A stretch of 64,000 nucleotides of DNA from Sedimentisphaerales bacterium (GTDB lineage: Bacteria > Planctomycetota > Phycisphaerae > Sedimentisphaerales > SM23-30), in contig CAXXMR010000003.1 in NCBI GenBank assembly GCA_963663805.2, forward strand, positions 192,001 to 256,000, given 5' to 3'. How positions within the stretch are numbered: position 1 is the stretch's first letter; each line of letters opens with the position of its first letter. Made by a program: the position numbers. Shown piece by piece: positions 33,001 to 42,000 of this stretch.

Positions 33001-36000
33001 CATCCACACCAAACTTCCGAGGCGTTTTTTCATTGCGAACAACCTTATTCATCACTCTTATTAATGCTTCACTTAATCTTGTAAAATGTTCATCCATTCC
33101 AGCATTGTATAGTAACTATACATTATTGTCAAAGGAATTTCATGACAATTGCAAAAGTTTTTAAAAAACTACAAAAATGTTACAATTGAGTTGTCGTCTT
33201 TAGAAAAGTTTATCAATCTCTGTTGCTGTCATTTACGGATTGTGTGCCTCTTGAAATCCTTGAAAAATGTATCCAAATACTTCGGCTGCTTTTTTACAAT
33301 CCTGTTCATTGGGATGATTGGCGGCCTGTTCCAAACGGGCTTTTCGTTTTTCGTTCATGGCATGAGGGTGGCCAGGTTTTTTATCCGCGATGTCGCGCAT
33401 CCACTGGATAAGTTTGGGGTCTATTTTTCCCTGGCAGATAAAATGTCCGAGAATACTATTGGCCCGCAATAATTTCTCTGCCTTTTTCATTGAATCGAGA
33501 GCGTGTTGAGAATCAGGGCAGGCTCCCAGCGTCAAAAAGATGCCGACATTTTTACCTTTGATTTTTTGCATATAATCACGAACAACCTTGTCTGGCATAC
33601 CTTTATCTACCCAACCGCCAATTGCGATAAAATCGTACCCATCAGGCAAGGGGGCTTGTTGTACCGGATAAATCTCGCAGTTTGGTAACAAAGCTTGATG
33701 AACAGCCTCGGCGATCATTTTGGTATTTCCGGTTTTACTAGAGTAAACAACCATGCATTTCATTTTGGAGCCTCTGGTTTTTCAAATTTCATAAGATCGT
33801 AAAAAAATTTCTGATATTGAGATCGATATATTGTTCTGGCAATGGTTCCGTTGTCTACCCAGAGTATTTTGTCACAGCATAATAAAACCAGCTCTATATC
33901 ATGAGTGATGATAATGACAGGGATTTTCTGGTCACAAAGTTTTTTGATTTCCGCGGCCAGCTTTCTCATTCGCATCATATCCAGGCCGCTGGTGGGTTCA
34001 TCAAGTATAATAATTTCGGGATCCAGAGCCATCAGAGCGGCAATTGCCAAACGCTGTTTTTCTCCGCCTGACAATGCCTGGGGGTGTCGATCTTTCAACT
34101 CCAGTAAGTCATATTGTTTGAGAATATCCTTAGCTGCGACATCGTCTGTATTATCATTTTGAGGGCTCAAAAGCAACTCGCCTAAAACGGTATCACTGAA
34201 CAATTGCTGCTCAGCCTGTTGAGTTACACAACCAATACGACCTATTCTGCTTTTAGGCTTGAAAACCTCACCTTTTATTGAAATCACACCCTTGTCTTCT
34301 TTTTGCAGACCGGTAATAATACGTGAAAGCGTTGTTTTACCAGCACCATTATGCCCCATAACAGCAATACAAGCGCCTGCTTCGACTGCAAAATTGACAT
34401 TATTCACTATCTGTTTATTTCGGCCTACCGAGCCATAGAGGCCTTGCACTTCAAGTGCAACATTTGGACCTGATTGTCCCGGACGATCTTCAACTTCAGG
34501 AGAGTGGTCCCATATTCGCAAGCCGGCCTTCTGTCGAAAGTTTGATGAAGCCAACTTATCAGGTGGACCGTCATAAACAAGTGCGCCATTTTTTATCACA
34601 ACCACCTGGTCAGCTAATTCACGTAAATACCAGAGGCGATGTTCTGAAATAACCATTGTTCTACCCTGTTTTTTTAATTTGCCCAACAGATGTTTAAGTT
34701 CGTGGATAGAAGAAATGTCAAGATTCGCTGTCGGCTCGTCCATAAGCAGTAAAGGCTGGTCCATGGCAAGGATAGAGGCGAGAGCAACTTTTTGCTTTTC
34801 GCCCGAAGAAAGCGTAAATAAATCACGATATCTGAGATGCTCGATTTCCACATCTGCCAATGCCAACTCAAGACGCTCCACAACAGTTTCAGGATCAAGC
34901 CCGCTATGCTCCAAACCGAACATTATCTCATCTTCAACAGTAAGCTGAAAAAACTGGGTATTGGGATTTTGGAAAACCGTACCTGCCAGCTCACTAATTT
35001 CCCATAATGATTTGCCGGCAATGTCCCGGCCGGCAATGCAGATTTGACCGTCGAGTATTCCGCCATAATGCCTCGGGGCCAAACCGTTAATGCAATGCAA
35101 TAAAGTTGACTTGCCGCTGCCGGAAGGACCGGTCACCAGAATCAGCTTGCCGGGTGATACCTGTATGTTAACATTTGCCAGGGCAGGATTATTTGGGCCG
35201 GCATATGAATAATTTAAATCAGATATTTTCAGCATTGCAATGTTATTATAAGAGAAATAGTGATGAGTGATGACATCAGGCCGGCTGTTATTATGAACGC
35301 GTAATAGTCATTTTTACGAAAACGAATGGGGCGAGGCTGTTTTGTGCAGTCCGGGCGGGCTAACCCTCGTGTTTCCGCTACAGCGGCGAGTTCATCTGCC
35401 ATTTTTAAGCTGCGTATGGTCACCAGAGCAAGATAACTCTGACCAATGAGGTGGGGATGCTTTAGTAGATCACGCTTTCGATGAACTATTCTACGCAAAC
35501 ACATGGAATCTCTAATGACCACCGATTCATTTAAAAGGGTAGGTAAAAATCGAACCGCAATGGTAAGCGGCAGGATAATAAGAACCGGTACTTTCCAGGC
35601 TTCCAGTGCCATTGCAAGATCACGCAGCTTGGTTGTAACGGCAAACCAGAGGCCGGTCACAGCCAGAACTCCTCCCCTAAAAACCATACCAATGAACATG
35701 GAGCCGGGATTATCCAGCGGCTTATTGATGATATAGTTGAACAAAAACACAAAAACGCTCCAGAGCATGACGGCCAAAAGCATTGTAATAACAAAAACCT
35801 TTATTAAACGCGAAAAATAAGCCAAAACACCAGCAGTGACAAACAGTCCCAGGCAGATAATATCATTGGCAAAGATAAGCGCCGCTGTAACTAAAATAAG
35901 GATAATCAGTTTACATCGCGGGTCAAGCCGTTCAAATACACAATCAGGATTGCGTTGTCCCAAGCGTTGTATAAATGAACGCATCATGCCATCACTCCTG

Positions 36001-39000: not shown

Positions 39001-42000
39001 AAGCCGCAGCGGTTGACGGTTCTCCCTGTCATCTGACATCCTCCGGAAAACACTAAGATTGCAGTCAAGGCCCAAAGTGCTGATTTTATTGTTGGCTTAA
39101 TTTTCATATTCATGATATTCCATTATCCATTTAATAGCCCGGTCCCCACAAAGTACGGTCTTCCTGCGAATCCGGCAGACTTAAATGAGTCCAGAACATA
39201 TGTCCTGAAGTTTTTATGTTGACCGGGGCGGCCACTTCATCGGCCTCATAACCTTTGACTCTGCCGATATGACTGTCAACAAACATAATATTCATGGCCT
39301 GATCATGATAGAAGCCGCTGGTATATCTGTGATGGCCCTGCCAATCGGGATTGTACTGAAGCAAATTCGGATTATATATGTCATAAACTTGGCCATAATA
39401 ACTCGTCTCAATCATGAACATGCAATCTGAGGCCATTCTAATATTGTCGAGTTTATATTTACCGCCCGGCCCGAAACGTAATTCCGGACTGGCCAATGTC
39501 CAACCGCTGCCGGCGCCGGCTTTTTTGTAATAACCATTTAACGCGTAACTGGTGTATTTTTGGTTATGAGGTGAGAAACCCATGGGGTACGGATCTTTAT
39601 CTGAAGGACAAAACCATAAATCTGCAGGTTCCTCCCAGGTTGCTTCTTTTGCGCTGTCTCCGCCAATATAAGGCAATAAGGCCCATATCCACGGCCTGGA
39701 GCCAATGTTGTTGGCCATAATACGATACGCAATTGGTATATCACCTTTGTTGTCCATAACATAAGTGCAAAACGCCAGCGATATCTGCTTCATTTGCGAA
39801 GCACAAACTACCGCCCGAGCCTGGGTACGCGCTTTTCCCAACGCCGGTAATAAAATCGATACCATCAGAGCGATTATCGCCACCACAACCAGTAATTCCA
39901 CTAACGTGAAACCACTGAACTTTTGTTTGTTTGTACAAAACATCAAAGCTGCTTCTCCTGCATACTGTTAATTGACCGGAATAAAAATATAATTACTCAC
40001 GTCAAGCCAGTTTTCCGCCAATTCCAGGATATCTAAAATATCTATCAGGCCATTCCCGTCACAGTCACCGTCAAGCCCGTCACCTTCCATATTCCAGTTC
40101 TTAGTCATAACAGCCCAATCAGCCAGATCAACAGAACCATCCATATCAATATCAGCACTATCACGTAATGGGCCTGCGGGCAAAACCGCATCCAAAGCGG
40201 TTGTAACCGAAAAAGCGTCTATGTACGGCTCGTCACCAGAAACTATAAATTCGACGGCAATATATTCAGGATTATGAGCCAGACTGAAAACTTTGGTACT
40301 TCTGTACCAGTTGTAATCCTCCTGACCATTACCAATTAGCTGATCCACAAAATTGCTTGGCGTTACATCTGTTGCACCATCAATATCAACCGTAACTGTT
40401 CCTCTGTCATACCAGTCGTATTGGACCATGACTTTCAGGCTTCCTGTTTGGTTGCCTGTGGGAATATTGGCTGTAAGAGTATGGCTTGCATAAGGATTGC
40501 CGCGATAGATTCCGCCGTAAACCCCGTCCACCCAGTTCGGCTGATCACCGGCCACAACACTGTCAACATAAGGATGCCAGGTGAGGAATGGATTGGTAAT
40601 TACCATATCTCCTATCAAGGTTTCTTCTTCCCACATCATGTTTGGATCACCATAAGCATTGTCCACATTCCCATCCGGCTCATGAGACGGCAGGAATCTG
40701 CCCGAACCTGCTGACATAAGCCAATGCTGATGAGTATAACCTGGATCATTACTCCAGTCCGGAATCCAGGCATTATCGAAACCACTTTTGCACTCGGTGA
40801 AAATCAGTACCGGCGAAGTGGTATGCGGCATGGGGTTAGCACTGTCGTCAGCCCGGCTGGACCAGAATCCGGGATGCATGTTGATCTCAGGGTTGTCGGC
40901 ATTGACATCTTCCCGGCCGGTAACCGCCAGCCCCAGATTCTCCACCCCTTGTTCACCATTGGTCGTCTCAAACAATATCCACTGGTTCACCAAAGTGGTA
41001 ATATCCCAATAGCAGACACCATCCTTAAAAACCATTAAGCTGGCATAGGAGTCCAGAATGTGATTTTCGTTGACATAAAAATCGCGGGGCGTGACCGAAT
41101 AATTGAGTATATTGGTTACATCCATATCAACGTTGTGAACTGAGACCGTAACCGGGCTGGTGGTGGTCATTCCCATCGAACCTTCCGCTCCCGAGGCCAT
41201 TCGCAACCAAGCCCTTTCTACAGGAGTATCAGGCAGAGATGCGGAATCAAACTTCAGGAAAAGTATGGTTTCATAGCTCTCCAACCCATTTCCCATATCT
41301 ATTAACGCATGCGCGTTTGAAGTAAGCAGATAGGTCCGATCAGAAAAAACCATTGTTGACATAGGCGTATAAAAATCACTTTGAACGTCAATCAGCGTGC
41401 TTGCCAGGCAATTGCCGGCTAACAATATCGCTGTCATAAAAAAATATTTTTTTGTCATTTTGCGGGTTCCCTTTTTAAAAATCACTGCCGGCCTCGATAG
41501 ATGGCTTGAGGCCGGCAGTACGGAGATATTGGCCCCTGAAGAGCCTTATTTCCTTTTCCTGAGACTCACCAGGCTGCCCAGACAAAGAAGCAGCATAGTG
41601 GCTGGTTCAGGAACGAAGGTATCGGATATATACGGAACTGAAGCCCCGGGAAATTGGCCATTATCAATGTCCCAGCTGCCAAAAGCGCCGCCGCCGGAAA
41701 AGATAATACCGTTGTTTACGCCGCCCACCCAACTATTATAAACATCGGTGATATCCACACTGCAAAGACCGGCGGATGTGATGCTTAGAGTTGCAAAGGG
41801 AGTGGCATTGATATGAGCGTCTTTAACCTGCTCCGGGGTGCTGGTCAGGTCACCGATATTTTCCACATCAATCGAGGCGGCGTAGAGATCGACAACCAGC
41901 GGACTTGCCACACTTGGAGCACTGATCCCCATCATACTGTTAACATAATCAATCTGTTCCAAAACCAGAAATGCCTGATCGACCGTTTCGGTCGGGCTGT

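Follow-up and report, generated by a model that had tools for sequence, protein, structure and literature searches.

A putative ECF-type haem importer covalently joined to a ChuW/HmuW-like radical-SAM domain in a Sedimentisphaerales bacterium

The fusion gene and its operon

The window analysed here (the whole stretch of 64,000 nt from one contig of a Sedimentisphaerales bacterium) contains a gene for a single polypeptide in which, judged from its sequence and structure model, a flexible linker connects a ChuW/HmuW-like radical-SAM domain to a six-helix ECF S component (Table 1). The reading frame is uninterrupted by any stop or frameshift. It is followed by the genes for EcfT, EcfAA' and a flavodoxin, with successive overlaps of 4, 7 and 4 nt, and the four genes are predicted to be co-transcribed. 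Gene positions and strand in the first-pass annotation were recovered as ORFs, all on the minus strand, and its domain calls (Radical_SAM, Trep_Strep, TIGR04107, ECF_T/ATPase, BilS and Cofac_haem_bdg) came up again in the Pfam/NCBIfam search. The genes of the block that it had placed at 33233..39032 also stand. The end given there, 39032, is the Met28 start of the ChaN-family gene; the longer ORF from 39113 gains a signal peptide and a lipobox (FSGGC).

Table 1. Features of the fusion locus (positions counted from the first letter of the window)
Feature	Position	Strand	Basis or remark
HmuF/FldH-type flavodoxin, 176 aa	33233..33763	-	Flavodoxin_3, FldH match
Fused EcfA-EcfA' double ATPase, 491 aa	33760..35235	-	ECF_ATPase_1 325.4 bits (cut-off 315)
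EcfT (T component), 252 aa	35229..35987	-	Pfam CbiQ 60.3 bits
Fusion gene, 661 aa (P0001): radical-SAM domain, linker, ECF S component	35984..37969	-	Single ORF, Pfam/NCBIfam
ECF S component domain (residues 484-661), six TM helices, Trep_Strep/MptD family	35987..36520	-	Pfam, fold
Disordered His-rich linker (residues 447-483, ~40 residues)	36521..36631	-	pLDDT <50
Class C radical-SAM domain (residues ~26-446)	36632..37894	-	ChuW/HmuW similarity, trees, Foldseek
Cys-rich micropeptide ORF, 24 aa, six Cys	38027..38101	-	Read from DNA; AGGAAA ribosome-binding site
ChaN-family lipoprotein, 325 aa	38136..39113	-	Pfam Cofac_haem_bdg 182.5 bits; PDB 2g5g, E 3.3e-13
DUF1559 prepilin-type protein, 271 aa	39131..39946	-	N_methyl and SBP_bac_10; upstream of fusion block in 4/4 loci
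Secreted 505-aa protein, DNRLRE-like N-terminal domain, dockerin-like C-terminus	39968..41485	-	
PEP-CTERM surface protein, 240 aa	41546..42268	-	Pfam PEP-CTERM; conserved in L002, L004
Conserved non-coding leader	42300..42470	-	Common to window, L002, L004
DUF2023, adjoins FldA (joint region 42525..43387)	42525-42884	-	
Long-chain flavodoxin FldA	42881-43387	-	NCBIfam flav_long 194.9 bits (cut-off 146.75)
HemP-family small protein, 65 aa	43453..43650	-	Pfam hemP 49.7 bits (cut-off 25)

The AlphaFold model of the fusion protein (mean pLDDT 72.0) has the layout described before, with a disordered linker at residues 447-483 (pLDDT <50) and six helices between residues 487 and 656. The linker of the relatives often contains H-P-H-x-x-K-Y-G (alignment A1). 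A protein cluster search found the fused form in 18 clusters (P0001-P0018, 53-72% identity), 17 of them with both Pfam families, exactly as counted earlier. Three shorter forms (P0019-P0021, 50-66% identity) are cut off or possibly split.

A worry raised in the first pass was that two genes had been mis-joined through an assembly or frameshift error. A 9-A homopolymer lies just upstream of the fusion, at the end of the micropeptide ORF, so homopolymer errors are conceivable in this assembly. Yet the 661-aa frame is intact, the identical architecture occurs in 18 clusters from several sources and in all four related Planctomycetota loci (L001-L004, from independent MAGs), and the linker always stays in frame among the relatives despite its variable sequence. 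The independent assemblies thus refute an artefact, to which we give practically no weight.

The radical-SAM domain

The radical-SAM domain (Pfam Radical_SAM 72-246, 66.7 bits) has a CxxxCxxC motif at C78/C82/C85 and the N-terminal motif F-x2-R-x-R-S-H-M-D. Its best NCBIfam family is ChuW/HutW (TIGR04107, 286.6 bits over residues 47-441), where it fails the equivalog cut-off of 400. HmuW-type proteins themselves reach 206-259 bits on this model (567 for E. coli ChuW), so a score below the cut-off is compatible with the activity. E. coli ChuW is 30% identical over residues 26-453 (E 5e-54) and colinear, including the N-terminal extension, and F. necrophorum HmuW is 26% identical (E 3e-42). The top Foldseek match is HemN (1olt, E 8.7e-21).

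In trees sampled without other class C methyltransferase families, a split with 99% support (99-100% across trees) separates the domain, together with ChuW, from HemW. In a quick tree it forms a clade of its own, sister to the HmuW-type clade (SH-aLRT 90), which contains F. necrophorum hmuW, a gene named in PMC10404700. By sequence, the domain thus groups with the HmuW-type anaerobilin synthases, apart from HemW. Of 31 positions with conservation in ChuW/HutW and none in HemW, it keeps 11; changes include those at ChuW G152, R153, D244 and K312.

The domain might instead be a HemW-like chaperone that passes imported haem intact to haem proteins, since the closely related HemW-type proteins are haem-binding. 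Its 173.3 bits on the HemW model and the loss of 20 of the 31 ChuW-specific positions would fit such a role. Ferrochelatase (PF00762) was not found in the 88%-complete genome, in which ALAD is present, so imported haem could be needed as a cofactor. We nevertheless consider haem salvage unlikely: the split from HemW is well supported, the HemW score is under the cut-off of 205.4 bits, the N-terminal extension typical of ChuW/HmuW is present, the genome has a separate HemW-like gene (contig C18:169386-170477), and the conserved partner is a predicted HmuF-type anaerobilin reductase.

The ECF module

The S domain matches Pfam Trep_Strep at residues 487-651 (38.8 bits, cut-off 28.7) and stays below the cut-off of TIGR02185 (32.5 bits, cut-off 76.45). 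Modelled alone (pLDDT 84.2), it is predicted to have the S-component fold: ECF S components account for all of the top 14 structural matches, the best being 5edl (Z 15.3, rmsd 3.3 A over 170 residues). The basic C-terminus and the basic loops at residues 541-546 and 585-591 agree with an N-in topology, which would put the radical-SAM domain on the cytoplasmic face. The genome has no CbiQ match other than EcfT.

Among unfused S components, the nearest (P0138, 41-45% identity) is a stand-alone protein of 193 aa in a Deltaproteobacteria MAG (locus L092). Its partners are orthologous to those in the window (T 36% identity; AA' 41% over 476 aa), and around the module lie a gene resembling those of TonB haem receptors, three HmuY-domain genes and one for HemS/ChuS. 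In the genome carrying the module, no protein was found to reach the ChuW cut-off. This one unfused locus provides the haem context of the S subfamily.

The flavodoxin and neighbouring genes

The flavodoxin of the operon (Flavodoxin_3 160.9 bits; BilS 96.1 bits, cut-off 155) matches FldH (PDB 8G64, E 4.7e-14), and its His134 in the cap domain aligns with the haem ligand. In 35 of 53 loci an HmuW-type gene has a homologue of it as neighbour, with 38-49% identity in 33 cases and ~25% in the other two. By homology it is a predicted HmuF/FldH orthologue that retains the haem-ligating histidine. F. nucleatum HmuF is reported to deliver haem to HmuW and to reduce anaerobilin, and not to donate single electrons (PMC10404700). 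The earlier claim that the flavodoxin supplies the electrons therefore needs revision. A haem carrier and anaerobilin reductase appears more likely than a simple electron donor, and the cluster is more likely reduced by the canonical long-chain FldA, whose gene lies 4.9 kb upstream.

The neighbourhood, with its ChaN, HemP, FldA and DtxR-FeoA/FeoB genes, also speaks for haem. FldA and DUF2023 are both conserved upstream in L002 and L004, where ORFs homologous to HemP were recognised by eye. The ChaN gene occurs in two of the four related loci and is missing from the other two. Homologues of the secreted 505-aa protein (NCBIfam DNRLRE 25.2 bits, under the cut-off of 34) are found in all four, partial in L001 and L003. 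The leader, unique in the genome, consists of an invariant AAGCCAGCCAGGGAGCA block, a terminator hairpin with a T-run, a strong SD and a two-codon mini-ORF; in L004 two pairs of its stem are compensatory. The sequence directly upstream of the operon yielded no iron-repressor site.

Another tetrapyrrole (a metal-free porphyrin, a chlorophyll-derived porphyrin or a corrinoid) might be imported and remodelled, not mined for iron. The clade is divergent and neither fusion domain passes its equivalog cut-off. Haem specificity is not a given either, as ChuW/HutW also act on metal-free porphyrins (PMC10114669). BtuR/CobO and CobB/CobQ-like genes lie 7-12 kb away in the window, ECF cobalamin importers exist and ECF-CbrT is among the structural matches of the S domain. 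However, the corrinoid genes, a MarR gene and a methyltransferase gene are not conserved beside the fusion in L001-L004, the conserved partners are of haem-specific kinds (HmuF with its haem ligand, ChaN, HemP), and in L092 the orthologous ECF module without a fusion has HmuY, HemS/ChuS and haem-type TonB receptor genes around it. A different tetrapyrrole thus seems improbable, and haem is most likely the cargo.

The Cys-rich micropeptide

Directly upstream of the fusion, in all five loci, is an ORF for a micropeptide with the motif C-x-N-x2-C-x-C-x3-C-K-V-C-x-C. It does not figure in the finding of the first-pass annotation. The relatives are 43-57 aa long, and the Cys, Val and Asn codons vary synonymously among loci. 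Neither the genome nor the other loci have a second occurrence of the motif. The micropeptide may be a further obligate partner of the fusion, as a putative iron acceptor or scavenger of an electrophilic product.

Class C methyltransferases modify peptides in thiopeptide pathways, and the radical-SAM domain could likewise modify the micropeptide, with the ECF part moving or sensing the product. The two strictly co-occur, the micropeptide stop overlaps the fusion start in the relatives, and the class C methyltransferase NocN is the second-best PDB sequence match. The conserved core is N-terminal and without a leader, however, and the tails are variable and change frame. Other peptide-maturation genes are absent from the Pfam/NCBIfam annotation, ECF transporters are importers, and the remaining context is all haem and iron. 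We regard peptide modification as very unlikely.

Proposed function

We favour, with a probability of roughly 0.65, a dedicated ECF-type haem importer covalently linked to the enzyme that begins anaerobic haem breakdown. This reading, already put forward in the first-pass annotation, is strengthened by the HmuW grouping, the HmuF-type His134, the L092 module and HemP; the direct hand-off of haem, and haem as the substrate, are what we infer. The failed TIGR04107 cut-off, the retention of only 11 of 31 ChuW-specific positions, the separate clade, the single unfused locus behind the haem context of the S subfamily, the lack of ChaN in two of four loci, the absence of a repressor site directly upstream and the turnover of metal-free porphyrins by ChuW/HutW count against it.

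Haem would be collected at the cell surface or in the periplasm; the ChaN lipoprotein may take part in this, as may the PEP-CTERM, dockerin and pseudopilin proteins, which are conserved. The S domain would bind it, and ATP hydrolysis by EcfAA'T would move it inwards and set it free on the cytoplasmic side, next to the tethered radical-SAM domain. There, two SAM and the [4Fe-4S] cluster, probably reduced by FldA, would methylate and open the porphyrin, giving Fe2+ and an anaerobilin-like tetrapyrrole. The HmuF-like flavodoxin would hold haem on its cap-domain histidine and reduce the reactive product. In this anaerobe, haem import is thus probably tied physically to the release of iron; the fusion would shield the cytosol from free haem and anaerobilin and fix a 1:1 stoichiometry.

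Comparison with known systems

HemW (TIGR00539), a haem chaperone, shares the HemN-like superfamily and haem binding with the fused domain, but belongs to a separate clade and has no N-terminal extension. ChuW (E. coli O157:H7) and HutW (V. cholerae) share fold, domain order, the CxxxCxxC motif and the best-scoring family with it, the 30% identity to ChuW extending over the full length. In E. coli the reductant is FldA (PMC10114669), and an fldA gene is near the fusion as well. Unlike the fused domain, ChuW and HutW are soluble and stand-alone, and ChuX, ChuY and ChuS genes are absent here.

F. nucleatum hmuTRUVWF (PMC10404700) likewise has a class C radical-SAM enzyme and an HmuF-type flavodoxin in a haem-uptake operon. 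The sister clades share the N-terminal motif K/R-S-H-H/M-D, and the flavodoxin keeps the cap-domain histidine. Identity to F. necrophorum HmuW is low (26%). The inner-membrane step there is a type II ABC importer, HmuTUV (Peripla_BP_2, FecCD and ABC, as seen in locus L135), and no S component was found in any of the 53 HmuW-type loci. Here an ECF module takes the place of HmuTUV, with the enzyme covalently fused to its S component.

The apparently undescribed L092 module resembles the window in its S, T and AA' proteins and in its setting among haem-uptake genes, but its S component is stand-alone and the cytoplasmic haem protein is HemS/ChuS. Known ECF-type haem importers include LhaSTA of Staphylococcus lugdunensis (PMC7299338), Lsa1836-1840 of Lactobacillus sakei (10.1101/864751) and SiaFGH of group A Streptococcus (cited in PMC7299338). 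They also have dedicated S, T and A modules and import haem for iron, whereas their S components stand alone and haem degradation, where known, is left to separate enzymes. An ECF haem importer as such is thus not new; since such importers and anaerobilin synthases are each already known, the novelty is their covalent fusion.

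Operon structure and occurrence of the fusion

The fusion gene is part of a run of genes on one strand (-), from the ChaN-family lipoprotein gene to the flavodoxin gene, that are separated by short gaps or overlap. The overlaps between the fusion, EcfT, EcfA and flavodoxin genes are 4, 7, and 4 nt, respectively, and the 661-aa fusion frame has no interruption. All domain calls of the first-pass annotation were reproduced with Pfam and NCBIfam. The fold described there was also recovered, as a new AlphaFold run (mean pLDDT 72.0) predicts a disordered linker at residues 447–483 and six helices at residues 487–656. 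Repeating the protein search gave the same 18 fused clusters (53–72% identity, both Pfam families in 17 of them).

It had been a worry that the fusion might be a mis-joined gene call. A locus search with the single fusion protein gave no relatives, and a search with A1, an alignment of the fused proteins, gave four fused loci (L001–L004) from MAGs labelled Sedimentisphaerales, Pirellulales, and Kuenenia. In all four the same gene is followed by the same genes, which rules out a mis-join. The fusion is nevertheless rare: among 401 sampled Planctomycetota genomes the only full-length match is in the window's own genome, and the remaining matches are to the radical-SAM part alone. In the window genome (88% complete), the operon carries the sole CbiQ/EcfT match, the sole Trep_Strep match and the sole full Flavodoxin_3 match.

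The disordered linker is His-rich (HHSKHNH) at residues ~465–480 (window 36530–36577), and the motif H-P-H-x-x-K-Y-G is found in the linker of ~11 of the 18 fused relatives in A1. This motif could be a metal or haem contact.

Positions of the features discussed, in the window and in related loci (L001–L004, fused loci; L092, Deltaproteobacteria MAG locus with an unfused ECF module; L129 and L135, HmuW-type loci)
Locus	Feature	Position	Strand	Remarks
Window	Corrinoid-related cluster	20778-25734	+	BtuR/CobO adenosyltransferase, 930-aa DUF1638-hydantoinase fusion, CobB/CobQ-like amidotransferase
Window	ISNCY/IS5-like transposase	29951-31456	+	NCBIfam 202 bits, under cut-off 325
Window	Flavodoxin	33233-33763	-	Flavodoxin_3
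Window	Double EcfA	33760-35235	-	ECF_ATPase_1 325.4 bits, cut-off 315
Window	EcfT	35229-35987	-	CbiQ
Window	Fusion ORF, 661 aa	35984-37969	-	Radical_SAM 72-246 and Trep_Strep 487-651
Window	Six-Cys micropeptide ORF	38027-38101	-	Unannotated, good ribosome-binding site, between ChaN and fusion
Window	ChaN-family lipoprotein	38136-39113	-	Cofac_haem_bdg
Window	Conserved non-coding leader	42300-42470	-	Upstream of PEP-CTERM gene
Window	HemP-family ORF, 65 aa	43453-43650	-	Pfam hemP 49.7 bits; upstream of fldA
Window	DtxR-type iron repressor fused to FeoA, then FeoB	47647-50534	-
Window	Palindrome TWAGGCTNGCCTWA, three exact sites	49736-49749, 50566-50579, 55536-55549
L001	Micropeptide ORF	8873-9001
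L002	Micropeptide ORF	8874-9014
L003	Micropeptide ORF	2636-2764
L004	Micropeptide ORF	5470-5640
L002	Leader	~4470-4650
L004	Leader	~1140-1325
L092	Gene 1, TonB-dependent receptor			Best family TonB-hemin
L092	Gene 2, HmuY-domain protein
L092	Gene 3, S component (P0138)
L092	Gene 4, T component	about 9579-10367		36% identity to window EcfT
L092	Gene 5, double ATPase			41% identity over 476 residues to window double EcfA
L092	Gene 6, two further HmuY-domain proteins
L092	Gene 7, HExxH protein
L092	Gene 8, two-domain HemS/ChuS protein
L129	HmuW-type gene	7989-9269		Halanaerobiales MAG
L135	HmuF, HmuW-type gene, HmuT, HmuU, HmuV, PNPOx-like gene	7480-16386		Niameybacter MAG

Relationships of the radical-SAM domain

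The CxxxCxxC cluster motif is present as C78-x3-C82-x2-C85, and each of the three cysteines is kept at ≥90% among the 18 fused sequences. The ChuW of E. coli O157:H7 (Sakai chromosome) aligns colinearly with the fusion in BLASTP (30% identity, E 5e-54), residues 26–453 corresponding to ChuW residues 18–439. This alignment takes in the N-terminal extension, which is absent from HemW. The fusion also matches positions 20–412 of the 419 positions of the ChuW/HutW model TIGR04107, covering the N-terminal extension and the C-terminal HemN-like domain. The literature numbering of ChuW R311 and of the catalytic Asp does not fit the RefSeq ChuW protein.

On TIGR04107 the fusion scores 286.6 bits, below the equivalog cut-off of 400, which had been put forward as a caveat to the activity. 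The fused clade and its truncated forms span 284–306 bits, compared to 567 bits for E. coli ChuW, 453–538 bits for 29 proteins that pass the cut-off, and 178–260 bits for HemW-type proteins, which pass their own model instead. HmuW-type proteins, however, reach only 206–259 bits, and the sub-cut-off score of the fusion is therefore no argument against the activity. On the HemW model TIGR00539 the fusion scores 173.3 bits, under the cut-off of 205.4, and the only other HemN-like gene in the window genome is a HemW-like ORF on contig C18. The fused clade keeps 36 of the 42 columns common to ChuW/HutW and HemW. It keeps, at ≥80%, 11 of the 31 columns specific to ChuW (≥90% conserved in ChuW/HutW and ≤20% in HemW), a low share that counts against a simple equivalence with ChuW/HutW.

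Two quick trees were made, covering HemW, ChuW/HutW, HmuW-type and fused sequences among the class C methyltransferase families. In the 70-row tree, a single clade (SH-aLRT 99) unites the fused sequences with the 454-aa P0020, a possible split form. A split with 99% support places this clade with ChuW and apart from HemW, beside two Alkalispirochaeta proteins. Relatives of the latter are found in 53 loci, including Fusobacterium necrophorum, Campylobacter, Treponema, Sebaldella, Thermotogae, and Clostridia. These are the HmuW family; passages of the JBC paper on HmuF name hmuW operons in exactly these groups (PMC10404700). The same passages describe F. necrophorum as having hmuW and lacking hmuF, and two of the HmuW-type loci (L116 and L118) match this in having hmuW without hmuF.

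The 53-row tree resolves four clades, HemW (support 100), ChuW/HutW (99), HmuW-type (100), and fused (100). In this quick tree, which includes the stop-bearing L129 sequence, the fused clade is the sister of the HmuW-type clade and not inside it (SH-aLRT 90). The fused sequences lie outside the ChuW/HutW clade, which has 92–99% support without them, and both trees part them from HemW by a 99–100% supported branch. The fused clade and the HmuW type have the N-terminal motif F-x2-R-x-(K/R)-S-H-(H/M)-D in common. The radical-SAM domain probably opens haem to anaerobilin in a SAM-dependent manner.

Codon 162 of the HmuW-type gene of L129, within the conserved GVQSF motif, is an in-frame TAA; either the gene is a pseudogene or the assembly is in error here.

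The S component and its ECF module

The S domain matches PF09605 (Trep_Strep) with 38.8 bits (Pfam cut-off 28.7), but reaches only 32.5 bits versus 76.45 on the NCBIfam S subfamily model. Its nearest ESM Atlas clusters are all Trep_Strep. The domain modelled alone has a pLDDT of 84.2, and in a structure search of 48,161 chains ranks 1–14 were all ECF S components (Z 15.3 to 8.3), with 5edl as the best match (Z 15.3, rmsd 3.3 Å over 170 residues) and the first unrelated row at Z 6.8. The loops that follow helices 2 and 4 carry basic residues, as does the C-terminus. The placement of these residues fits an N-in, C-in topology, so the radical-SAM domain would be cytoplasmic. The T and A/A' components are co-encoded, in overlapping EcfT and EcfAA' genes.

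A word-based search for short S homologs gave only the fragment P0121 and no close one. A full HMMER search with the S profile gave 18 proteins, including stand-alone S components of 180–197 aa, down to E 3e-40. One of them, P0138, annotated as an MptD-family S component, is 41–45% identical to the fused S domains and is encoded on a 242-kb Deltaproteobacteria MAG contig (L092). Its neighbours are of the haem kind; in another phylum, the orthologous ECF module, unfused, thus belongs to a locus for haem uptake. L092 differs from the window in that the S component is unfused and the cytoplasmic haem protein is a different one (HemS/ChuS). No ChuW at cut-off was found in its genome, and among 17 genomes of its class only this genome has a window-type S component. 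Scans of metagenome contigs with the S-domain alignment and with the stand-alone S component P0123, and of genome contigs with P0147, gave no relative, and none of the 53 HmuW-type loci has a match to the window-type S component. On the opposite strand, adjoining the HmuW-type genes of L135, a DUF4430 protein and another ECF transporter are encoded, the S component of the latter belonging to a different family (ECF-ribofla_trS).

The flavodoxin and the reductant

The flavodoxin of the operon (Flavodoxin_3, 160.9 bits in Pfam) had been described as BilS-like and as the supplier of electrons. Its nearest solved relative is 8G64 (E 4.7e-14), which according to passages of PMC10404700 is haem-bound FldH, a paralogue of HmuF, with a cap domain at Lys116–His150 and His134 as the proximal haem ligand. 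H134 of the window flavodoxin aligns with H137 of the 8G64 chain, i.e., FldH His134 in the numbering of those passages, and the HPNE motif at His150 is retained. An HmuF-type flavodoxin adjoins the fusion in all five fused loci, and of the 53 HmuW-type loci, 35 have a flavodoxin homolog next to the HmuW-type gene (38–49% identity in 33, about 25% in two). HmuF-like neighbours of HmuW-type genes have the same sub-cut-off BilS match (97–113 bits). The flavodoxin described as BilS-like is therefore an HmuF orthologue.

In F. nucleatum, HmuF is no one-electron donor, but carries haem to HmuW and reduces anaerobilin (PMC10404700), which speaks against the role of electron supplier. By analogy, the window flavodoxin would bind haem and reduce anaerobilin. 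A canonical long-chain FldA is encoded 4.9 kb upstream (flav_long 194.9 bits, cut-off 146.75) and is kept in the neighbourhoods of L002 and L004. As FldA is the reductant of E. coli ChuW (PMC10114669), it is probably also the reductant of the radical-SAM domain here.

A cysteine-rich micropeptide

In all five fused loci, the fusion is immediately preceded by the micropeptide ORF. The first ~21 residues form a conserved core, M-x3-C-x-N-x2-C-x-C-x3-(C/Y)-K-V-C-x-C, whose codons for Cys, Val, and Asn show synonymous variation, suggesting that selection acts on the peptide and not on the RNA. Tails are of different lengths (24–57 aa) and in different frames. In L001 and L003, the stop codon overlaps the fusion ATG, and the window micropeptide ends after a 9-A homopolymer (38031–38039). 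The motif was not found elsewhere in the window genome or in 140-odd other loci, and the protein collection gave no homolog.

Genomic neighbourhood and regulation

Upstream of the operon, on the same strand (-), there are genes for a DUF1559 prepilin-type protein, a 505-aa secreted protein with a dockerin-like tail and a PEP-CTERM protein, next the conserved leader, DUF2023, FldA, and the HemP-family ORF, and farther away a second set of PEP-CTERM, pseudopilin, dockerin, and lipoprotein genes, followed by FeoB and the DtxR-FeoA fusion. Taken together, these 17 kb look like an island for iron acquisition. The order FldA to HmuF is preserved in L002 and L004, and ChaN is absent from L001 and L003. 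HemP-like ORFs were spotted by eye in L002 and L004. The window genome (88% complete) contains ALAD, and no ferrochelatase was found in it.

The leader occurs once in the window genome and contains an invariant AAGCCAGCCAGGGAGCA block, a T-run terminator hairpin with two compensatory pairs in L004, a strong Shine-Dalgarno sequence and a two-codon mini-ORF (M-V/A-stop). It may be a conditional terminator. No Rfam family matches the leader above gathering; a plastid 3'UTR family hit on the hairpin (33.9 bits vs 55.8) is meaningless.

Scans for E. coli-type Fur boxes and for DtxR/IdeR boxes near the operon gave only background-level matches. Two sites of the palindrome TWAGGCTNGCCTWA, 49736 and 50566, lie beside the feo genes, just upstream of each, and the third lies within the ORF 53481–56885; the palindrome is absent upstream of the fusion operon. 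It is likely the operator of the local iron repressor.

Next to iron, haem, and corrinoid genes there are three similar gene sets (38136–42268, 43904–47071, and 27098–29471). Both (-)-strand sets contain PEP-CTERM, DUF1559 prepilin-type, dockerin-tailed secreted protein, and lipoprotein genes, and in the third only the DUF1559 and dockerin genes were identified. These recurring sets may represent a modular surface-capture device of the lineage. The transposase lies 1.8 kb past the operon end; the intervening genes, for MarR and a methyltransferase, lack conservation in L001–L004.

Proposed mechanism and relation to known systems

Haem is normally taken up and broken down in separate steps, and both free haem and anaerobilin are toxic. 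Four rivals of haem import coupled to ring opening were weighed: a HemW-like chaperone, another tetrapyrrole as cargo, peptide modification, and an artefact. Our boldest proposal, which is tentative and to which we give a probability of roughly 0.3, is that the complex is a vectorial haem-to-iron converter, i.e., a group-translocation-like mode of ECF transport. Haem bound to the S domain would never be set free, but would be handed directly to the tethered radical-SAM domain during or after toppling, and this domain would open the ring at the membrane. The co-translated six-cysteine micropeptide would trap the Fe2+ or the electrophilic anaerobilin, and HmuF would reduce the tetrapyrrole.

If true, and as far as our searches reach, this would be the first known fusion of an S component with an enzyme that consumes the transported cargo. 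A cargo-capturing subunit fused to a cargo-destroying enzyme would be a natural test case for substrate channelling at the membrane. It also raises the question of how a 450-residue cytoplasmic passenger is accommodated by an S component, which is presumed to topple in the bilayer. Anaerobic acquisition of iron from haem has so far been studied in pathogens of the gut and mouth; the finding would extend it to free-living anaerobic Planctomycetota and connect haem with one subfamily of the MptD/Trep_Strep S components, which are uncharacterised. The analysis also brings to light an unannotated cysteine-rich micropeptide linked to the fusion system. Experiments should be feasible, because Sedimentisphaera cyanobacteriorum, the named source of the fused protein P0002, is a cultured organism.

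Parts of the system have precedents: passages of PMC7299338 and 10.1101/864751 describe ECF haem importers, and those of PMC10404700 anaerobilin synthases with HmuF. Our literature search gave no paper joining anaerobilin synthase with energy-coupling factor or ECF terms, and the passages searched in a survey of S-component folds (PMC11109136) do not mention radical, haem, or enzyme. The HmuW-type locus L135 has the classical HmuT, HmuU, and HmuV genes, whereas the window has an ECF module. New relative to the searched literature are the covalent fusion, the ECF module in place of HmuTUV, and the micropeptide.
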